The translations under genes were made by a program, and so were the position numbers. Shown here piece by piece: positions 14,807 through 26,322 of a DNA stretch of 31,970 bases; positions within the stretch are counted from its first letter, which is position 1, and each line of letters starts with the position of its first letter. Under the pieces are notes generated by a model, which saw only the letters and a list, made by a program, of their open reading frames with translations, did not search any database and had not been told where the DNA came from. This stretch comes from Woeseiaceae bacterium (lineage in GTDB: Bacteria; Pseudomonadota; Gammaproteobacteria; Steroidobacterales; Woeseiaceae): assembly GCA_036526055.1 (NCBI GenBank), contig DATCZF010000219.1:1-31970 (forward strand). The letters are read 5' to 3'.

Positions 14807-15160
14807 TCAGGCGCTCTTTGCGGGTGCCAGGGCTTTTTCGAGGCTGGCCTGGTAGTCGCGCGCGGGACGCGCCCCGACCAAAGACTCCACCACCTGGCCG
14901 TTCCGGAACAGCATGACCGTGGGTATCGACCGAATACCGAGTCGCGCCGCAGTCTGCTGATTACTGTCGATATCGACCTTGGCGACTTTTGCCCGCCCCG
15001 CATACTGGGTGGCAAGCGCTTCGATGACCGGGCCGACCATCCTGCATGGCCCGCACCACTCGGCCCAGAAGTCGACCAGTACCGGTTCCTGCGATTGCAG
15101 AATCTCGGCCTCGAAGTTGCTGTCGGTAAGATGAATGACGTTGCTGCGCGGCTGGCTCAT
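14807..15160 (-). CDS. trxA: Thioredoxin
   Basis: VLVDFWAEWCGPC, GIRSIPT. Start moved to ATG 15160 (GGAG 5 nt upstream); 117 aa. Confidence 0.95.
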   Translation of the reverse strand: MSQPRSNVIHLTDSNFEAEILQSQEPVLVDFWAEWCGPCRMVGPVIEALATQYAGRAKVAKVDIDSNQQTAARLGIRSIPTVMLFRNGQVVESLVGARPARDYQASLEKALAPAKSA

Positions 15161-15311
15161 GGGGGCTCCATCCGATCGGGTTCGTTGTGAGCATTCATTG
15201 ATTGGGACTGGCGGCCGGATTTCAAGGTGCGCTGTCGGTCGCAAGGCTGTCTCGGCGCCGCGCCGCGATGCTATATTGGGGCGCAAAAGAGGCCACTGCC
15301 AGGGAAGTCGT

Positions 15312-15869
15312 ATGCAAACCAAAGGAGAGTACCTGATTGCCGCCCCGCGGGACGCGGTCTGGGCGGCGCTCAATGACCCCGCGGTGCTGCAGCAGTGCAT
15401 TCCCGGATGTGAGAGTTTCAGTGCCGCCGAGGGTGGTCGGTTTGAGGCCCTGGTTGCCGCCTCCGTAGGTCCGGTGCGGGCGAGCTTCAAGACCAGCATT
15501 GCGCTCGAGGAATTAGAGCCGCCGCAGCGTTATTCCCTGGTCGGCGAAGGGCGCTCAGGCGCCGCCGGGTTCGCCAAGGGGCGCGCGGACGTGCACCTGG
15601 TCGCGGAAGGGGAGCAGACCCGCCTGCATTATTCGACGACGTTCCAGGTGGGCGGCAGATTGGCGCAGGTAGGTTCGCGTCTGGTTGTCGCCGCAACGCG
15701 CAAGACGACGGACGAGTTTTTTGCGGCGTTCACACGTCACCTGGAGTACGGGACTGCCCCAGCGGACGCGCGCATGACGGCAGCAGCGCCAACGTTCAAT
15801 TGGCGCATGTTGGCGGCCGTCGCTGCGGCACTGTTAGTGGCCGGTATTCTGCTCTGGACGGTTTTGTAG
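15312..15869 (+). CDS. coxG: CoxG / SRPBCC family protein with C-terminal membrane anchor
   Basis: VWAALNDPAVLQQCIPGCE, VGGRLAQVGSRLV, hydrophobic C-terminus LAAVAAALLVAGILLWTVL. Start moved to ATG 15312. Confidence 0.87.
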   Translation: MQTKGEYLIAAPRDAVWAALNDPAVLQQCIPGCESFSAAEGGRFEALVAASVGPVRASFKTSIALEELEPPQRYSLVGEGRSGAAGFAKGRADVHLVAEGEQTRLHYSTTFQVGGRLAQVGSRLVVAATRKTTDEFFAAFTRHLEYGTAPADARMTAAAPTFNWRMLAAVAAALLVAGILLWTVL

Positions 15870-15917
15870 CGGGCCTGGGGCCGCTATCATCACGGGTTCA
15901 GCGACATCGGAAACGCT

Positions 15918-16418
15918 ATGGCACACAACATTGAATTTCGGCTAAACGGTTCAACAGTCAGCGAATCAGTCACGGCCAACTTGCTGCTTGTTGACCTGTT
16001 GCGGGACCGATTGCGGCTGACCGGTACCCACGTTGCCTGCGATACGAGTCAGTGCGGCGCCTGCGTCATTCATGTCAACGGCCGCTCGGTAAAAAGCTGC
16101 TCCCTGCTGGCCGTGCAGGTGGATGGCTGTGACCTCACCACAATCGAGGGCCTCGCCCGTGGCGCAGAACTGCATCCTTTGCAGGCGGCGTTCAGGGACT
16201 GTCATGGGCTTCAATGCGGCTTTTGTACGCCTGGCATGATCATGAGCGCGCTGGATCTCCTGCAACGGGATTCATATCCGGACGAGCAGCAGATCAGGCA
16301 GTGGCTGGAAGGCAATATCTGCCGCTGCACCGGGTATCACAACATCGTCCGTGCTATCCAGGCTGCGGCCGCGAGCATGCGCGGTGACGCGGTCGTGCAG
16401 GCAATGGACGGCGACTGA
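15918..16418 (+). CDS. coxS: [2Fe-2S] small subunit of a xanthine-dehydrogenase/CO-dehydrogenase (form II-like) family enzyme
   Basis: [14 protein letters not shown] ... [26 protein letters not shown] (two [2Fe-2S] sites). Confidence 0.92.
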
Positions 16419-17215
16419 TGTACGACTTCGATTATTACCGCGCGGAAAGTATCGAACAGGCCAGGGAATTGCTGGCCGCAAACAGCGAAGCGAGGTTGCT
16501 CGCGGGTGGAATGACGCTGTTGCCGGCAATGAAAATGCGCCTGGCCGCGCCCCCTGCGATCGTCGACATCGGCCACTTGCAGGATCTCAAGGGTGTCTGT
16601 GTAGACGGGGACGCCGTTGTCATAGGCGCTTTGACGACACATGCTGAAGTCGCCGACAGCGAAGTCCTGAGAACCGTTTTTCCCGCGCTCGCCGACGTTG
16701 CCGCGCATATCGGCGACGCACAGGTACGCAATTGCGGGACACTCGGCGGATCGCTGGCGAATAACGATCCATCGGCGGACTATCCTGCCGCAGTCCTGGC
16801 GCTCAATGCGGTCATACGGACAAGCCACAGAGATATTGCCGCCGACGAGTTTTTCACGGGAATGTTCGAGACAGTGCTGGCGGCAGACGAAATTATTCTT
16901 TCGGTAAGATTTCCGCTGCCCCTTTTCGCCGCTTACGTGAAATTTCCGAACCCGGCATCCCGCTATGCCATCGTTGGCGTCATGGTTGCCAAGCACAGCA
17001 GCGGCGTAAGGGTTGCGGTCACGGGCGCCGGCGCCTGCGTGTTTCGCGCCCGCGACATCGAGGCGTTACTCGATCAGCGATTTGACGAAAACGCGTTGCA
17101 GGACTTTGCCTTCGCGGCGGATGACCTGAACGATGACATGCATGCCAGCGCGGAATACAGGGCGCATCTCGTGGTTGTGATGGCACGGCGGGCCACCGCC
17201 GCCGCCCGCTGTTGA
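16418..17215 (+). CDS. coxM: FAD-binding medium subunit of a xanthine-dehydrogenase/CO-dehydrogenase family enzyme
   Basis: [73 protein letters not shown] overlap with coxS. Confidence 0.92.
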   Translation: MYDFDYYRAESIEQARELLAANSEARLLAGGMTLLPAMKMRLAAPPAIVDIGHLQDLKGVCVDGDAVVIGALTTHAEVADSEVLRTVFPALADVAAHIGDAQVRNCGTLGGSLANNDPSADYPAAVLALNAVIRTSHRDIAADEFFTGMFETVLAADEIILSVRFPLPLFAAYVKFPNPASRYAIVGVMVAKHSSGVRVAVTGAGACVFRARDIEALLDQRFDENALQDFAFAADDLNDDMHASAEYRAHLVVVMARRATAAARC

Positions 17216-17225
17216 GCCAGGCACG

Positions 17226-18275
17226 GTGAACGCAAGACGATTGATCGAAGCCTTCACCACCTGGACGCAGGATGGGGAGACGCTGGTGCTGGCGAGGGTA
17301 TTCAGGACGCAGGGTTCGACCTACAGCAAAGCAGGCGAGTGCATGTTATTGACCGCAGACGGGCGGTTTCAGGGCATGCTTTCGGGTGGCTGCCTGGAAG
17401 GTGACCTTGCCGAGAGGGCGAAGCAGGTCACAGAGTCGGGCCAATCGCAGACCGCGACCTATGATCTCGGCAAGGACGACGAACTCTGGGGCCTTGGCGT
17501 CGGTTGCGATGGCATCATGCACATTCTTCTGCAGCCCCTCCGCGTTGCGGACGGTTACCAGCCGTTTGCCGGCATCATCGCGGCGTTGCGAGGGACATCG
17601 CAGGTCGTGTGCGCCACCGTGGTCGAATCCGGCATGCCTGAGCTGGCGCTAGGCACGACGGTCGTTATCGACCAGCAGGCATCGGCGCTGAAAACATTGC
17701 CGGGAGAACTGGCTCGCCAGGTCGAGGGCAGCATCACTGAAATACGCAGGTCAGGTCAGTCTGCGCTCGTCAGCTACGAGCAGGACGGAACAACGGCGAA
17801 ATTATTGCTCGCGACATTGCGACCCTCGCCGCGATTGTTGTTGCTTGGAGCAGGGCTCGATGCCGTGCCACTGGTCAACATGGCGAGGGAGCTTGGCTGG
17901 ACAGTGGAAGTGGCCGATCATCGACCGGCCAATTTTTCGGGCGGTCGTTTCGCCAACGCGGACGTCTGCCACTGTGACTCAGTGCAGGCGTTGATCGAAA
18001 CAATCGCATTCAGCCAGTTCGATGCCATTGTAATAATGTCGCATCACCTCGAGACCGACAGAAAATTTCTCGCGGCAATCGCATCCGCAACAACGCCGTA
18101 TGTTGGCTTGCTCGGGCCAAGAGCCAGGCGCGATCGCCTGCTAGCGGCACTGGGGGCAAAGGGGGCGAATCTGTCCGAACGACTGCACGGGCCAGCCGGA
18201 CTTGATATCGGCGCGCGCGGGCCGGAAGGCATTGCCCTGTCGATCCTCGCTGAAATACAACGGGAACTGGCCTAG
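17226..18275 (+). CDS. xdhC: XdhC/CoxF-family molybdenum-cofactor sulfuration/insertion chaperone
   Basis: GSTYSKAGE, GMLSGGCLEGDL, GLGVGCDG, LLLGAGLDA, YVGLLGPRARR, GPAGLDIGARGPEGIALSILAEI. Confidence 0.9.
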   Translation: MNARRLIEAFTTWTQDGETLVLARVFRTQGSTYSKAGECMLLTADGRFQGMLSGGCLEGDLAERAKQVTESGQSQTATYDLGKDDELWGLGVGCDGIMHILLQPLRVADGYQPFAGIIAALRGTSQVVCATVVESGMPELALGTTVVIDQQASALKTLPGELARQVEGSITEIRRSGQSALVSYEQDGTTAKLLLATLRPSPRLLLLGAGLDAVPLVNMARELGWTVEVADHRPANFSGGRFANADVCHCDSVQALIETIAFSQFDAIVIMSHHLETDRKFLAAIASATTPYVGLLGPRARRDRLLAALGAKGANLSERLHGPAGLDIGARGPEGIALSILAEIQRELA

Positions 18276-19076: not shown

Positions 19077-21749
19077 TTACTGCAATGCAAAAGTGAGCCT
19101 CAGGACCGAGCTGATTCGCGTGGCTTCGCCGTTGCTCATCACCGGTTCAAAAGTCCACTGGCTCAGCGCCTCTATCGAGGCCTTATTGAACATTGATCCG
19201 GGTTTTGAATTCACTACCTCGACTTCTTCGACCAGGCCGGCCTCATTCACGGTAAATCGCAGTTCCACCCATCCGGTCACCTGGCGCCGTTTGGCGGCCC
19301 GGGGAAATTGCGGTTCGATGACTTTGATGGGGGTCAGTTCACCGAAGCTGACTTCCTGGAGTTTTGCATCGGCAGCCGCAATTTCATTCTCCGCGCTGGC
19401 TGGCGGGGTCAAATCGTCAGCCGGCGGCGCTAAAAGCTGATCGATGGCAAATACTGCCGGGTCCGCTGCGGAATTCTCTGCCACGCTGTCGCCGGCTTCC
19501 GGTGATTGCTCCGTCAGGATCTCGGCGCTGTCCGCGGTGATGCTTTCCGCTTCGGGTTCCTGCGGCTCAGGCACGCGGGTTTCCTGCTCGCCCGGTCCGG
19601 CTGAGGCAGTGCGTTGCGGCTTGCTGACGGCCGATTCGTTATGCAAGTCGAGAAGTTGCTCCCATGCCAGCGCCAGGCGTGATTCGGCATCAGCGAGGCC
19701 GGCGCCCTGGGGAGCAAGCTCGCGGGCCTCTGCCAGCAGGCCGTGTGCTTCACGCAGGCGCTTGGCGTCGATCTCGCCGTAGGCAGCTGTAACCAGCTTC
19801 GTGGCGACCGTCGAAAGCCCGGCTTGGGCGGACTGGTTGCCCGGGTCTGCGGCAAGCACCTGCTCAAAATAATAGCGGGCGTTGTTGCCGTCCGGTTTCA
19901 CCAGCTGGCCCTGCTGCAATTTCACGTCGGCGAGGCGCAGCCAGTGTTCAATGCGGCTGGTGCCCAATGCGGCATCGAGTTCGCTACGCACCGCGTCCAC
20001 ACCGGCAGTCTCCGCCGGCAGTAATGCGAGCGCGTTGCCAATATGCCTGGATGCGTCGTCAAACCGACCGTCGCCGATAGCGCTGCGTGCCAGGGCCAGT
20101 TCTGCTGACTGTTCAACCCTGTCCAGGGCCAGTCCCAGCTCGGTCAAACGTGCATTGTCGCTGTCAGCCTGCTCGACAATTTCGAGGGCGCTTGCAGCTG
20201 CCTCGATTTGTCCGTTCTGAATTGCCACTTCCGCGCCATCGAGTATTTCTTCGACCAGGCCACGGTATTCACTGACGATGGCGGCGTCATTGGCGCCATT
20301 GGCGAGTGCAAGGCTGTAGAGTTCGATCGCATTTGCGCCTGGCGGGGAGATCAGTTGCCCTGCCTCTCGCGCATTGCGCGCCGCGGACAGGTATTCGCTG
20401 CCGGGCCCGATGGGGGCTGTAGTTCTATCGGCTGCGGTCGTCAACACCGCCGGCTCGGTAGCCGCTGGCATCCAGGCAGCCAGGTTTGGCGCCACCCGGT
20501 CCCACTGCAATCCGACCAGTGCAGCCGCGCCTGCGAAAAGGACGAACATCACGAACTTCGGCCTGCGCAGGGCCTGCTGCGCACCGCGCGCGAAGAGCCG
20601 CAGCAACCCGGCAAGCATTATCAACAGGAAGCGCGACACGCTTATCAGCGTTTGGCCGGCGCTTCGTGCCAGCCATAACAGGAATTTGCCAAATGCTTTG
20701 AGACCGCTGGCCACCGCCGATGCAGACGCACTTTGCTCATTGCGGCGCCGGCCCCCGGCAACCGCCTCATCAGCCATTGCCGGCAGCGGGAATTCGATGT
20801 CACTTTGATCGAAAGCTTCGTCCGGTGCATCAAAGTGATGCTTTACCGAGGCCTCGATCGCGAGCCGTGCCCTGCCTGGCGAAACCGGCTTGAGCAGAAA
20901 ACGGTATACGCGGCCACGATTGATCAGCTCCATCATCAGGTCGCCGTCGTCGCGGCGGCCGGCAACAATGTTAACCAGTCGTGGCGCCGCCTGCCGCAGC
21001 TGTGCGGTCAGTTCGTTGATCTCCGTGCTGACGATGGCTGCATCGGTCAATACGACGCCTATACCGTTGTCCTGGTTCAGGCGAATGGCCTGTTCGATGT
21101 CGCTCGCATGGCGTACGTGGTGAATACCCCGTGCGGCTTCCTTGACCGTGGCAAGAAATTCGTCGTCCCGGGTAATGACCAGAATATCGGTGTTACGCGG
21201 CATGTCTTCCGGCGGAAGTTCGAAATCGAGGCTTTGCGGCAGGCGAAACCGCCCGGTGCCGTCGCTGATGACACTGATGCCGCTATCGTCCGTTTCCATG
21301 ACGATGTGCTCTTCGGCGGCTTCGTCAACATCGGCTGATCTGTCGTTTGCGGAATCGGATAGTGCCGACAGGCGCACCTTGTGTGTGGCGTCGTCGACCA
21401 GTTCTCTTAACAGCCGGGGGTTGGGCTCGCCCCGCACAATACGGAACAGTTCTTCAGCGCCGACAACGGCGCTGTCAGCGTGCTCAGCCTCGGCCAGTAG
21501 CAAAATACAGACGGTTTCCGGCGAGCGCTTGCTGGCTTCCCGCAGCGCGTCGGCGCCACTCATGCCGGGCAGGTCATATACGGAAATGATGACATCGATC
21601 GGCGTCGAGCCGAGCGTTTCCAGGGCTTCGATACCCGACGTGGCCGTATGTACGGCATAGCGGCTGTTGAAGCCGCTGCTCAACTGGTCGAGTGTGCGTT
21701 GCTCGCTATGCAGCAACAGCACCTGTGTCTTGAAATACTCTAGTCCCAA
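19077..21749 (-). CDS. Multidomain inner-membrane protein: two receiver-like domains, TM helix, helical (TPR-like) repeats, acidic/Pro linker, C-terminal TonB_C domain
   Basis: REC1 ~aa 8-122 (DVIISVYDLPGMSG). REC2 ~aa 187-305 (VVLTD ... RGRVYRFLLKP). TM ~aa 399-415. TonB_C ~aa 805-890 (EPQFPRAAKRRQVTGWVELRFTVNEAGLV ... ALSQWTFEP). TTG start with GGAGAAGG upstream. Confidence 0.82.
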   Translation of the reverse strand: MGLEYFKTQVLLLHSEQRTLDQLSSGFNSRYAVHTATSGIEALETLGSTPIDVIISVYDLPGMSGADALREASKRSPETVCILLLAEAEHADSAVVGAEELFRIVRGEPNPRLLRELVDDATHKVRLSALSDSANDRSADVDEAAEEHIVMETDDSGISVISDGTGRFRLPQSLDFELPPEDMPRNTDILVITRDDEFLATVKEAARGIHHVRHASDIEQAIRLNQDNGIGVVLTDAAIVSTEINELTAQLRQAAPRLVNIVAGRRDDGDLMMELINRGRVYRFLLKPVSPGRARLAIEASVKHHFDAPDEAFDQSDIEFPLPAMADEAVAGGRRRNEQSASASAVASGLKAFGKFLLWLARSAGQTLISVSRFLLIMLAGLLRLFARGAQQALRRPKFVMFVLFAGAAALVGLQWDRVAPNLAAWMPAATEPAVLTTAADRTTAPIGPGSEYLSAARNAREAGQLISPPGANAIELYSLALANGANDAAIVSEYRGLVEEILDGAEVAIQNGQIEAAASALEIVEQADSDNARLTELGLALDRVEQSAELALARSAIGDGRFDDASRHIGNALALLPAETAGVDAVRSELDAALGTSRIEHWLRLADVKLQQGQLVKPDGNNARYYFEQVLAADPGNQSAQAGLSTVATKLVTAAYGEIDAKRLREAHGLLAEARELAPQGAGLADAESRLALAWEQLLDLHNESAVSKPQRTASAGPGEQETRVPEPQEPEAESITADSAEILTEQSPEAGDSVAENSAADPAVFAIDQLLAPPADDLTPPASAENEIAAADAKLQEVSFGELTPIKVIEPQFPRAAKRRQVTGWVELRFTVNEAGLVEEVEVVNSKPGSMFNKASIEALSQWTFEPVMSNGEATRISSVLRLTFALQ

Positions 21750-21799
21750 CGACCTTCTCCTGAATTACTGATTTCCGCAGACTGTATTTCCGGGATTTG

Positions 21800-21894
21800 A
21801 GTATATCGACGAGAAACAACACAAACGCCTGGGACCGGCGTTTTGCGTCCAGAATTGTGACGGGGCTCACACACGGTGTGCGGCCGGGGTCACA
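21800..21894 (-). promoter_or_regulatory. Candidate CRP/Clp/Vfr-family-activated promoter of the receiver-TonB gene
   Basis: -10 TATACT (minus strand, 21805-21800) with a poor -35. Perfect TGTGA-N6-TCACA at 21856-21871. Weaker TGCGG-N6-TCACA at 21879-21894. Confidence 0.6.
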
Positions 21895-21993
21895 TTTTTT
21901 CTTCTGGAGAAGATTTGGGCGTTGCGCAACCCATGGAAACCGGGGCGCGCGCGATTTGACTTTGGTGTGCGCGCCAGCGCTAAACGTGTTGTT

Positions 21994-23907
21994 CTAACGA
22001 CGCTCCGCGATTTCCTGCTGCAGCGCTGCAAGCGCCTCGGCGAAGGGCAAAACGGCCTGCTCCCTGGAACCGAGCCGGCGCATTGCCACCGTGCGGTTTT
22101 CCACTTCGCGCTGGCCGACGGCAAGGATCACCGGCACCTTGGCAACGCTGTGCTCGCGCACTTTGTAAGAGATCTTCTCGTTGCGCAGATCGGCCTCGGC
22201 GGTAATACCGGCGGCCAGCAGCTCGCGAACCAGGTCTTCGGCGTAATCGTTCGCCTCGGACGTGATCGTGGCGATCACAGCCTGGGTCGGCGCAAGCCAC
22301 AGCGGGAGATTGCCGGCGTGATGCTCCAGCAATATGGCGGTGAAGCGCTCCAGTGAACCGAACATTGCCCGATGCAGCATCACCGGCGTATGTTTCTGGC
22401 CGTCCTCGCCAATATAGGTTGCTCCGAGCCGATCGGGCAGATTCAGGTCGACCTGCAACGTGCCGCACTGCCAGTCGCGACCGATCGCGTCACGCAATAC
22501 GAATTCGAGCTTGGGTCCGTAAAATGCGCCTTCGCCCGGGTTGTAGCTGAATTCCAGCCCGGTTGATTCGATCGCAGCCCGCAACGCTGCTTCCGCCTCG
22601 TCCCACACGGCATCGTCGCCAACGCGGATTTCGGGTCGATCGGCGAACTTGATCAGGACCTTGTCGAAACCGAAATCCCGGTATATGCCGAGGATCAAAT
22701 CACAAACCGCGATCGATTCTTCGCTGATCTGGTCGCGCGAACAGAAAATATGCGCATCGTCCTGCGTGAAGGCGCGCACGCGCAGCATGCCGTGCAAAGC
22801 GCCGGAGGGTTCGTAGCGATGCACCTTGCCGAATTCGGCGATACGTCGCGGCAGGTCCCGGTAGCTCGTAATGCCCTGCTTGAAGACCTGCACGTGGCCC
22901 GGGCAGTTCATCGGTTTGAGCGCGAAGACCCGGCCGTCCTCGGTGTCGGTCGTGTACATGTGCTGGCCGAACGATTCCCAGTGGCCCGAAGCCTCCCAAA
23001 GTGATCGATCCATGACCTCGGGCGTGTTCACTTCCTCGTAGCCCGCATTCCGCTGCCGCTCACGCATGTAGTCGATCAGTCTCTGGAACAGGCGCCAGCC
23101 ACGCGGATGCCAGAAGACTCCGCCGGGAGCCTCTTCCTGGAAATGAAACAGGTCCATCTGTTTGGCCAGCCTGCGGTGATCGCGTTTTTCCGCTTCCTCG
23201 AGCTGTTGCAAATACTGGCGCAATTGCTTGTCGTTCGCCCACGCCGTGCCGTAAATGCGCTGCAACATTGCGTTCTTCGAGTCGCCGCGCCAATAGGCGC
23301 CCGACACGCGAGTCAGCTTGAAGGCTTTGCCGAGCTTTCCCGTCGATGGCAGGTGTGGTCCGCGGCAGAGGTCCGCAAAGTCTCCCTGGCGATATACGGT
23401 GAGTGTTTCACCTGCAGGAATATCCTCGATGATTTGCGCCTTGTATTCCTCGCCGAGCTCGCGGAAAAAGGCGACGGCCTCATCCCGTTGCCAGACTTCG
23501 CGATGAATGGCTTCGTCGCGATCGACGATCTCTTTCATTCGCGCCTCGATTGTTTCGAGGTCCTCCGGCGTAAACGGTTGCTCGCGGGCAAAGTCGTAAT
23601 AAAAGCCATTGTCGATCGCCGGGCCGATGGTTACCTGGGTATCCGGGTACAGCTCCTTCACGGCCTCCGCCATGACATGCGCGGAATCGTGGCGCAGCAG
23701 TTCCAGGCCATCTGCCGAATCGCGGGTAATGATTTCGACCTGCGCCCCGTCCTCGATTTCCCGGCTGATGTCGCGCAACTCGCCGTTTACGCGAACAGCC
23801 ACGGCATCGCGTGCGAGCCCGCTGCCGATACTGGCCGCCAGCTCCATTCCGGTTACCGGTTGCTCGAAAGTCTTTGCAGACCCGTCAGGTAGAGTAATCT
23901 TTGCCAT
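21994..23907 (-). CDS. thrS: Threonyl-tRNA synthetase
   Basis: TGS domain ITLPDGS, editing domain [45 protein letters not shown] (Zn ligands Cys/His/His), anticodon domain [12 protein letters not shown]. Confidence 0.98.
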
Positions 23908-24048: not shown

Positions 24049-24555
24049 ATGAAGGATACGGGTGCAAAACGGCGCTTTCCGCCGGCAAAACACGATCATG
24101 AGCACTGCATGGCTACCGCTCTCAGCACAGCCGAGGCGCTGTGCCGAAGTCGCGGGCTGCGGTTCACGCGGCTGCGCCGCAGGGTGCTTGAACTGGTCTG
24201 GAACAGCCACCAGCCTGCCGGTGCCTATGACATTCTCGCGGCGCTCAATGACGAGGGTAAGCGCGCAGCCCCGCCAACGGTCTATCGGGCACTCGATTTT
24301 CTGATTGAGGCGCAGCTGGTGCATCGGCTGGATAGCCTGAATGCCTACATCGGGTGTTCCGATCCGAGCAATGCCCATGACGGCCAGTTCCTGATCTGCA
24401 GGAGCTGTCGCTCCGTGGCCGAGCTGGATGACAGCGATCTGCAGGCGACCGTTGCGAACCGTGCCGCCAGTCTTGGCTTTACCGCCGTCCACCAGGTGCT
24501 CGAAGTGCAGGGTATCTGTGCAACCTGCGCGGCGACAGGGCAGGCTGCACAATGA
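24049..24555 (+). CDS. zur: Fur-family regulator, Zur-like
   Basis: N-terminal HDHEHC, RRRVLELV, GAYDIL, PPTVYRALDFL, VHRLDSLNAYIGC, FLICRSC and GICATC (two CxxC). Confidence 0.85.
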   Translation: MKDTGAKRRFPPAKHDHEHCMATALSTAEALCRSRGLRFTRLRRRVLELVWNSHQPAGAYDILAALNDEGKRAAPPTVYRALDFLIEAQLVHRLDSLNAYIGCSDPSNAHDGQFLICRSCRSVAELDDSDLQATVANRAASLGFTAVHQVLEVQGICATCAATGQAAQ

Positions 24556-24639
24556 GCTTGCGGTAAAACACTCGTTAGCGCCGTTGCGTTGACATACAAT
24601 AGCGCCCCTCGAAAACTCGCAAATACTCGAAGAATATTC

Positions 24640-26322
<1,683 letters not shown>

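Follow-up and report, generated by a model that had tools for sequence, protein, structure and literature searches.

TonB-type domains are the standard route by which the inner membrane reaches proteins of the outer membrane, and receivers are the standard currency of bacterial signalling. The subject of this work is a gene that unites the two in a single chain. It lies in a stretch of 31,970 nucleotides from a Woeseiaceae bacterium (GenBank assembly GCA_036526055.1, contig DATCZF010000219.1, positions 1 to 31,970 of the forward strand), hereafter the window, where one uninterrupted frame without internal stops, at 19077-21749 on the reverse strand, codes for a protein of 890 amino acids (aa). 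Among described systems, TonB of Escherichia coli and TonB1 of Pseudomonas aeruginosa share with this protein a TonB_C domain with its (Y/F)P motif and fold, a single-pass anchor with the N-terminus inside, and a flexible spacer rich in proline and acidic residues. The window protein differs from them in having about 395 cytoplasmic residues with two receivers, where TonB has only a few, in the addition of a solenoid of about 260 aa resembling tetratricopeptide repeats (TPR), in a transmembrane (TM) helix that has no His/SHLS motif, and in not being linked to exbBD. CpoB of the Tol-Pal system is likewise a periplasmic TPR module working with a C-terminal domain of the TonB/TolA type, and TtpD of the Vibrio TonB2 clusters is a TPR protein that works beside TonB; unlike these, the window protein carries TPR and TonB_C in one polypeptide, coupled to receivers. 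PleD-type regulators also have two consecutive CheY-like domains, one of them a degenerate adaptor, but the first receiver of PleD is active and its output is a GGDEF enzyme, whereas in the fused form described here the first receiver is dead and the putative output is a membrane-anchored TonB-like part.

TonB3 of P. aeruginosa is not known to have receiver domains. It is a non-transport TonB paralogue, encoded away from the ExbBD-like motor PocAB with which it works (PMC5285504), and the genome from which the window was drawn also has an orphan ExbB/ExbD pair; no link to pili or flagella was seen among the genes that neighbour the window gene. Together with SjdR (PMC8262864), PocAB-TonB3 illustrates that TonB paralogues can have roles other than transport (PMC5285504). 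A further likeness is found in GltJ and GltG of the Agl-Glt gliding machine of Myxococcus, which have a regulatory module in the cytoplasm, a single membrane anchor and, in the periplasm, a domain of the TonB type, the cytoplasmic ZnR-linker-GYF part of GltJ being a molecular switch that controls, from the inside out, the assembly of an envelope-spanning complex (PMC11135422). The window protein, which belongs to a different phylum and has no sequence kinship with them beyond TonB_C, has REC-REC in that place, and Pfam detects in it no ZnR-GYF or FHA domain; there are no Agl/Glt, MglA or pilus genes among its neighbours, genome-wide co-occurrence not having been searched, and any tie to gliding machines (GltG/J) or to pili (TonB3) would be one of analogy only. 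A 2025 survey of periplasmic force transducers makes no mention of receivers (PMC12204202), and we found no paper on REC-TonB_C proteins, on operons of a kinase, a regulator and a TonB-like protein, or on Woeseia together with TonB, in keeping with an earlier note on this DNA, which had been aware of no characterised protein of this architecture. Public annotation names the homologues 'TonB family protein'.

The gene and the parts of its product are laid out as follows (coordinates are those of the window):

19077..21749, reverse strand: whole gene (P0001), encoding the 890-aa receiver-receiver-TM-TPR-TonB_C protein; TTG start, TAA/TGA stop codon included
21756..21761, reverse strand: Shine-Dalgarno sequence AGGAGA, 6 nucleotides (nt) before the TTG start
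21348..21728, reverse strand: REC1, aa 8-134, a conserved pseudo-receiver (33.7 bits in Pfam when taken alone, AlphaFold2 fold, site statistics)
21189..21347, reverse strand: inter-receiver linker, aa 135-187; SAND motif conserved, 'hIVME..G' beta-hairpin in common with the split regulators discussed below
20829..21188, reverse strand: REC2, aa 188-307, a divergent receiver (Pfam, AlphaFold2 fold, site statistics)
20559..20828, reverse strand: variable cytoplasmic linker, aa 308-397, differing in length and composition between orthologues
20502..20558, reverse strand: single TM helix, aa 398-416, N-in, its periplasmic end marked by a conserved Trp; His/SHLS motif absent
19626..20402, reverse strand: periplasmic TPR-like helical solenoid, aa 450-708, 11 helices (AlphaFold2 with a local confidence, pLDDT, >95; Foldseek)
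19350..19625, reverse strand: acidic, Pro/Ala-rich linker, aa 709-800, of which ~720-794 (~75 of ~90 residues) is predicted to be disordered (AlphaFold2)
19080..19349, reverse strand: TonB_C, aa 801-890, with the (Y/F)P motif (Pfam, TIGR01352, AlphaFold2 fold, Foldseek, invariant columns)

The TTG at 21749 is the likely start because AGGAGA stands 6 nt away, because just five further codons are open upstream of it, and because homologues share their N-termini: in more than 50 of them the alignment begins at residue 1-3, opening with M/V-x-L-E-x-F-K-T-Q. The same succession of receiver, receiver, TM helix, helical repeat and TonB_C had been proposed in the earlier note, with limits for REC1, REC2, the TM helix and TonB_C that fall within a few residues of ours, and Pfam, AlphaFold2 and Foldseek bear it out; both the Response_reg and the TonB_C profiles of Pfam score above their cut-offs, and hydropathy gives one clear TM helix at 398-416. 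Response_reg is matched in two stretches, with 52.2 bits for the whole protein against a cut-off of 30.2, REC2 remaining below that cut-off when taken alone (26.2 bits). In AlphaFold2 models built from family alignments (A1, A2), REC1 and REC2 are both (beta-alpha)5 with pLDDT mostly >90, a small hairpin of low confidence lies between them at 150-162, and their mutual packing is not fixed (predicted TM-score, pTM, 0.48); Foldseek gives the tandem receivers of PleD as the best structural match of this N-terminal half, and also finds receivers of the REC-HD and HupR types. At the other end, TonB_C (PF03544) is matched at aa 812-889 with 66 bits against a cut-off of 24.6, and TIGR01352 with 49.2 bits against 27.1; NCBIfam adds a TonB C-terminal subfamily domain and TonB equivalogs, the latter aligning through the Pro-rich spacer, while Foldseek finds a target TM-score of 0.90 to 6i97_D and 2gsk_B, the TonB domains bound to FoxA and BtuB. 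In 52 orthologues Y/F-P-R..A.RR is nearly invariant, and later G, V, G, F, W and R are invariant. Because this classical motif is so strongly constrained, TonB_C is expected to bind a TonB-box-type strand.

As the single TM helix is kept throughout the family, the gene product is, by predicted topology, a bitopic inner-membrane protein with its receivers in the cytoplasm and its TPR and TonB_C parts in the periplasm. In the window protein the linker that leads to the membrane carries basic amphipathic or hydrophobic helices (344-389) and ends in RRPK before the TM helix; by hydropathy its Arg-containing hydrophobic or amphipathic stretch at 364-389 is, among aligned orthologues, found only in the closest relatives, the others having at this place a long A/K/P/E linker of low complexity, together with a small 'SFTETMTGIA' motif. 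One RNA-library contig of low depth (2.4) skips 79 nt at window positions 20519-20599, inside the TM-coding region, probably an artefact of assembly or of strain since 79 is not a multiple of three and the skip comes from a single run. The helical part, for which Foldseek finds weak matches to TPR proteins and to BamD, is not peculiar to this family: as it also follows Ser/Thr-kinase domains in other Pseudomonadota proteins, it is seen to be a reusable extracytoplasmic unit. P0198, P0202 and P0230, of 1400-1800 aa, have an N-terminal Ser/Thr kinase and then 10-13 copies of the same periplasmic TPR-like repeat. The Joint Genome Institute (JGI) name 'serine/threonine-protein kinase', given to some homologues, was rejected, those proteins having no kinase domain; it probably stems from the kinases that have the same repeat.

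The gene belongs to a family. A word-indexed search scored 514 homologues, and the best 120 of the 514 all have REC and TonB_C, many over their full length; an exhaustive search of representatives of 50%-identity clusters gave 218 homologues at E <= 1e-30. With one genome scanned per species, the N-terminal receiver module is encoded in at least 224 species genomes, a count that rests on this module, the architecture from REC to TonB_C being seen in the full-length homologues; among 80 of these that were listed, the labels are Woeseiaceae or Woeseia, a few Chromatiales, and unclassified Gammaproteobacteria or Proteobacteria, closed chromosomes included. Of 24 genomes of the Woeseiaceae, 22 have the gene, as a single frame of 850-1220 aa; the other two, in which it was not found, belong to one genus (G006, G020) and are reduced genomes of 1.8-2.0 Mb.

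Conservation is highest in the 320 cytoplasmic residues, with 55-60% identity against ~33% for the rest of the protein, and both receivers are under strong purifying selection. REC1 of the window protein has H14/S15 in place of the acidic pair, V57 in place of the phospho-Asp, L85 for the Thr and G107 for the Lys. Across 50 fused orthologues H14 is found in 50/50, position 15 is mostly S and never D, position 57 is A, T, S, V or G and never D, position 85 is mostly A, with T in 2/50, and position 107 is mostly G and never K; the Asp is missing as well from four more fused proteins outside that alignment (P0200, P0232, P0233, P0265). The complete D-D-D-T-K quintet thus occurs neither in the window protein nor in any of its 50 fused orthologues (0/50), against 15/15 of the regulators that we now describe. 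REC2 is of another kind: it retains D195 in 49/50, D236 in 50/50 and K287 in 49/50 of the fused orthologues, its Thr/Ser position is A263-G264 in 50/50, and the acidic residue is displaced from the strand end; the segment A263-G264-RRDDG...YRFLLKP, on the alpha4-beta5-alpha5 side, is invariant or nearly so, and the purifying selection just mentioned extends to it and to the Asp and Lys of REC2.

A three-gene operon, in which a histidine kinase is followed by a REC1-REC2 regulator and then by a TM-TPR-TonB_C protein, with gaps between genes of -16 to +30 nt, is present at 15 loci (L030, L031, L039-L045, L047, L048, L050, L051, L054, L055) in at least 14 genomes of this family and order. The kinase (~620-670 aa) has two TM helices in nearly all cases, a periplasmic part of ~230 aa, and HisKA and HATPase_c; the regulator is soluble (380-570 aa) and consists of REC1 and REC2, no DNA-binding or enzymatic domain being found in it; the TonB-like protein (430-510 aa) has a short acidic tail, one TM helix, the same helical repeat and TonB_C. 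Common to fused and split forms are REC1, the inter-REC 'hIVME' motif, REC2, the Trp that ends the TM helix and the opening 'AR.A...G.L..P' of the repeat and, because the modules are homologous, the window protein is, as read from these likenesses, the single-chain counterpart of the operon's regulator and TonB-like protein. The split regulator has at its end a basic amphipathic helix (..L.RLRNVRRLW), which is conserved and may bind the membrane. No conserved fourth gene stands beside the split operon, which adjoins different genes from locus to locus (CN-hydrolase, polyphosphate kinase, SBF transporter, TPR protein, beta-propeller). In the complete genome G010 the fused gene is present, and none of the TonB_C matches of that genome is an open frame as large as the split TonB-like protein (~430-510 aa).

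Other arrangements help to place these two. In other families of the order there are single-receiver fusions, REC2-TM-repeat-TonB_C, of ~580-690 aa. Outside the order, in scattered families across the class (L150-L161), a homologous kinase stands with a REC1-REC2 regulator of ~300 aa that has no output domain, and no TonB_C gene lies beside the pair at these loci; since the pair thus occurs without it, the TonB-like gene appears to be an added output, specific, on this comparison of loci, to the order-level group. A tree of REC2, unrooted and with the single-REC forms on long branches, has three groups: the fused proteins, two- and single-receiver together, the split-operon proteins (94/95 support) and the class-level ones (96/90). 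Where the two halves are fused, the REC1 site and the kinase have both been lost. This would be expected if phosphorylation of REC1 normally controls recruitment of the regulator to the TonB-like protein and if covalent tethering makes that recruitment needless. The idea of the earlier note that outer-membrane contact might be under two-component control survives in part: the operon running from kinase through REC-REC to TonB_C lends it real support, while in the fused form the REC1 phospho-site is lost in 50/50, no kinase is linked, and the input that is visible in the DNA is a promoter of the CRP type.

That promoter occupies the spacer of 244 nt between thrS and the receiver-TonB gene, with a layout that is conserved family-wide:

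21879..21894, reverse strand: distal, weaker CRP-like site (GTGA-N..-GCAC), half-sites conserved in the upstream alignment
21856..21871, reverse strand: proximal CRP-type palindrome TGTGA-N6-TCACA, 122 nt upstream of the start in the window
21823..21843, reverse strand: inverted repeat separating the CRP-like sites from the -10 box, its dyad kept and its sequence differing between orthologues
21800..21807, reverse strand: family-conserved -10 box GATATACT, conserved in at least 80% of 26 aligned upstream regions

The proximal site, in its family form TGTG(C/A)-N6-GTCACA with at most one mismatch, is found at 77/78 orthologous loci, at -126 to -136 (-122 in the window), where the background rate is 0.0016 per 330 nt, and the genome from which the window was drawn encodes at least six regulators of the Crp/Fnr type; CRP-type sites had been pointed out separately at the first reading, and their conservation across the family supports that call. 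Because the layout is conserved and such regulators are encoded, the upstream comparison indicates that the receiver-TonB gene would be a regulated transcription unit of its own. The inverted repeat could be an operator or the terminator of thrS; a terminator call for the hairpin at 21843-21823 was dropped, the dyad occurring in other orthologues without a T-run. A scan with the sigma-70 consensus found no promoter, the -10 box being visible solely by comparative alignment. Rfam recognizes no known RNA family in the window, and the predicted 5' untranslated region folds no better than shuffles (z 0.59); a motif of this region (ATT..ACATAA) is common to most orthologues and poorly matched in the window.

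We may take these observations as the starting point for an explanation. The TonB-like protein is the likely output of the split system, because it is the only non-signalling gene of the operon and because no other output domain is present in the regulator. There the kinase would sense and phosphorylate REC1, thereby controlling how the regulator engages the TonB-like protein; as the output, the latter would in turn engage an outer-membrane protein by a TonB-box-like strand, and its TPR part would hold partners in the periplasm. In the Woeseiaceae the regulator would have become covalently tethered to the TonB-like part and, after tethering, phospho-control through REC1 and the kinase would have become dispensable, control having moved to transcription (by a CRP-family factor, probably answering cAMP or a similar signal) and perhaps also to REC2. 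The protein would then act as a signal-controlled, inside-out contact with the outer membrane and not as a general energizer of TonB-dependent transport. That the window protein derives from a two-component module, is independent of a kinase and controlled through transcription, and has TonB-like outer-membrane contact as its output, is the account that we favour, at a confidence that falls somewhat short of even. The wider proposal, that phosphorylated REC-REC gates TonB-box or outer-membrane engagement as the very output of the two-component system, the Woeseiaceae form being tethered, phospho-independent and switched by CRP, is put forward as a tentative possibility. The window protein is probably not a classical energy transducer.

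Several points weigh against this account. The binding of the regulator to the TonB-like protein is presumed, and the cytoplasmic tail that the latter has in the split form is short (~10-85 aa) and not conserved. The direction in which information flows is set by no result presented here, and the periplasmic repeat is the same as that which follows Ser/Thr kinases, where it would be a sensor. REC2 could, from its retained residues, still accept phosphate from an unlinked kinase. A TM helix without a His could still couple to a motor. Finally, the fused proteins are, in the tree of REC2, a sister lineage of the split ones and are not nested among them, so that their descent by fusion of the sampled operons is not shown.

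FecR-type transducers and those of the BlaR1-TonB_C type are thought to work by relaying a signal from the outside in. The window protein might be a trans-envelope sensor of this sort, in which TonB_C and the TPR part detect an outer-membrane receptor (for example the exposed TonB box of a ligand-loaded transporter) or the state of the envelope, and in which the REC module transmits this to the inside, through the binding or release of a partner in the cytoplasm. Such a view would make good use of the sensor position that the helical module has in membrane Ser/Thr kinases, of a cytoplasmic module that is conserved above the rest of the protein, as expected for an output that binds a partner, and of a REC1 that belongs to the pseudo-receivers, which often serve for docking. 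Yet receivers are normally inputs, no candidate for a cytoplasmic target is linked to the gene, and the split kinase has its own periplasmic sensor of ~230 aa facing a split REC1 that is a normal phospho-acceptor, which points to a flow from the kinase to the regulator and on to the TonB-like protein; we consider the outside-in relay unlikely, though it deserves to be kept in mind.

The earlier note had spoken of a force-transducing role, and this finds no support here: of the features of TonB energy transducers, the window protein has the TonB_C profile, the fold and the YP motif, and it has neither the TM motif nor the linkage to exbBD. Neither the His/SHLS motif, the defining feature by which TonB and TolA dock to their motors, nor any conserved polar residue is found in the TM helix of 52 orthologues, the conserved columns of the TM region being P, A, A, W and G only. 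In relatives, where the genomes searched have 56-88 Plug domains each, a standard exbB-exbB-exbD-tonB cluster, with TonB as a frame of 202 aa, lies elsewhere in the genome and, because of this canonical cluster, the TonB-dependent transporters (TBDTs) would seem to have a dedicated TonB already for their general energization. The window's own genome has ybgC-tolQ on one contig and, on another (contig C45, L038:1016-2148), an orphan exbB-exbD pair that is flanked by a comEC-like gene and msbA and has no tonB for a neighbour. The comEC-exbB-exbD-msbA locus appears to resemble the PocAB locus of Pseudomonas. At the end of contig C95 (L035:86-511) there is a 141-aa protein with a signal-peptide-like N-terminus and TonB_C, having no long spacer.

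The window protein could accordingly be a true energy-transducing TonB paralogue, driven by an unlinked motor of the ExbB/ExbD type, for which that orphan pair is the candidate, with receivers tuning its activity towards a subset of TBDTs or towards polarity in the manner of PocAB-TonB3, which is its precedent (PMC5285504). The canonical TonB_C with its (Y/F)P motif and its resemblance to transporter-bound TonB domains, the spacer rich in Pro and acidic residues, the wealth of TBDTs in these genomes, and the very existence of an ExbB/ExbD pair without an adjacent tonB would all fit this. The orphan ExbB type is, moreover, single-copy and present in 38/41 relatives, and it was not found in the reduced-genome genus (G006, G020), from which the fused gene is missing too, or in one incomplete genome. 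This co-absence is a single event in genomes of 1.8-2.0 Mb and carries little weight; read from gene content, it would be one co-loss and only a lead. The other families of the order, in which no two-receiver fusion was found, also have the orphan ExbBD type. When we add that the TM helix has no His or other conserved polar residue, that the gene is never beside exbBD at 14 orthologous loci and that a standard short TonB sits in the exbBD cluster, a motor-driven paralogue appears improbable.

The receivers might, in contrast to their role in inside-out control, be structural. The protein would then be a static tether or scaffold of the envelope, like TolA plus CpoB or like SjdR, with TonB_C anchored to peptidoglycan or to an outer-membrane protein and the TPR part organizing partners. 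Tol-Pal systems, through CpoB, bring TPR and TonB/TolA-type domains together (PMC12204202), SjdR is a TonB-like protein with a documented structural role (PMC8262864), REC1 is degenerate and there is no motor motif. As for TolA itself, its family is not among the Pfam matches of the window protein, the best NCBIfam matches are TonB families, and ybgC-tolQ lies, as said, on another contig. A purely structural role is difficult to reconcile with the strong purifying selection on both receivers, down to the Asp and Lys of REC2 and its invariant alpha4-beta5-alpha5 segment, with descent from, or kinship with, a kinase-linked operon, and with a promoter that is regulated, of the CRP type, and not housekeeping; we regard this explanation as quite improbable. 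That the gene is an assembly chimera or a decaying pseudogene, as could be feared of a window drawn from a metagenome-assembled genome that is 80% complete and in 290 contigs, has a negligible likelihood, the same architecture being present in hundreds of independent assemblies, closed chromosomes among them, independent metagenome contigs covering the domain junctions, and the frame having no internal stops and conserved motifs throughout.

Indeed, the chimera that the earlier note had offered as a possible undoing of its own proposal is refuted by the hundreds of homologous assemblies together with one independent contig from an estuary metagenome, which spans 19920-22000 and thus reaches from REC1 into the periplasmic repeat, most of which it covers. 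DNA nearly identical to that of the window is found in metagenomes of at least eight studies (estuary, sediment). In two studies, RNA libraries yielded contigs over portions of the gene; these contigs may include DNA and are not counted as proof of transcription.

Around the gene, the window contains thrS, a Fur-family gene, glnS, tetR and coxG/S/M-xdhC, and no TBDT, exbBD, kinase or pilus gene, so that the gene stands alone in the window, as had been noted at the outset. The synteny thrS, receiver-TonB gene, tetR, all on one strand, is fixed at the 14 orthologous loci, and neither exbBD nor a kinase lies beside the fused gene at any of them. At 21994-23907 on the reverse strand thrS is followed by the receiver-TonB gene and not by infC-rpmI-rplT, and this is so family-wide; upstream of thrS and divergent from it are the Fur-family gene and glnS (24049-26322, forward strand). 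Further along, 15135-18275 on the forward strand holds coxG, coxS ([2Fe-2S]), coxM (FAD) and xdhC; a molybdopterin large subunit was not found among the open reading frames of the window that were scanned, and the frame 16337-16996 on the reverse strand, which overlaps the cox genes, is probably spurious.

What is conserved here is the union of REC and TonB_C, both as one protein and as an operon of kinase, regulator and TonB-like protein, of which we found no experimental study in the literature. The contrast between a REC1 that is intact in the split form and dead in the fused one amounts to a natural experiment on the replacement of phosphorylation-dependent recruitment by tethering. If the regulator does control the TonB-like protein, response regulators would have a new class of output, and TonB-dependent outer-membrane processes a new means of post-translational control; environmental signals would have a route by which to gate outer-membrane uptake or contact directly. 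Since the Woeseiaceae are described as benthic members of marine-sediment communities, and since the genomes of relatives are as rich in Plug domains as we have seen, such control could bear on the way in which these bacteria take up their substrates.

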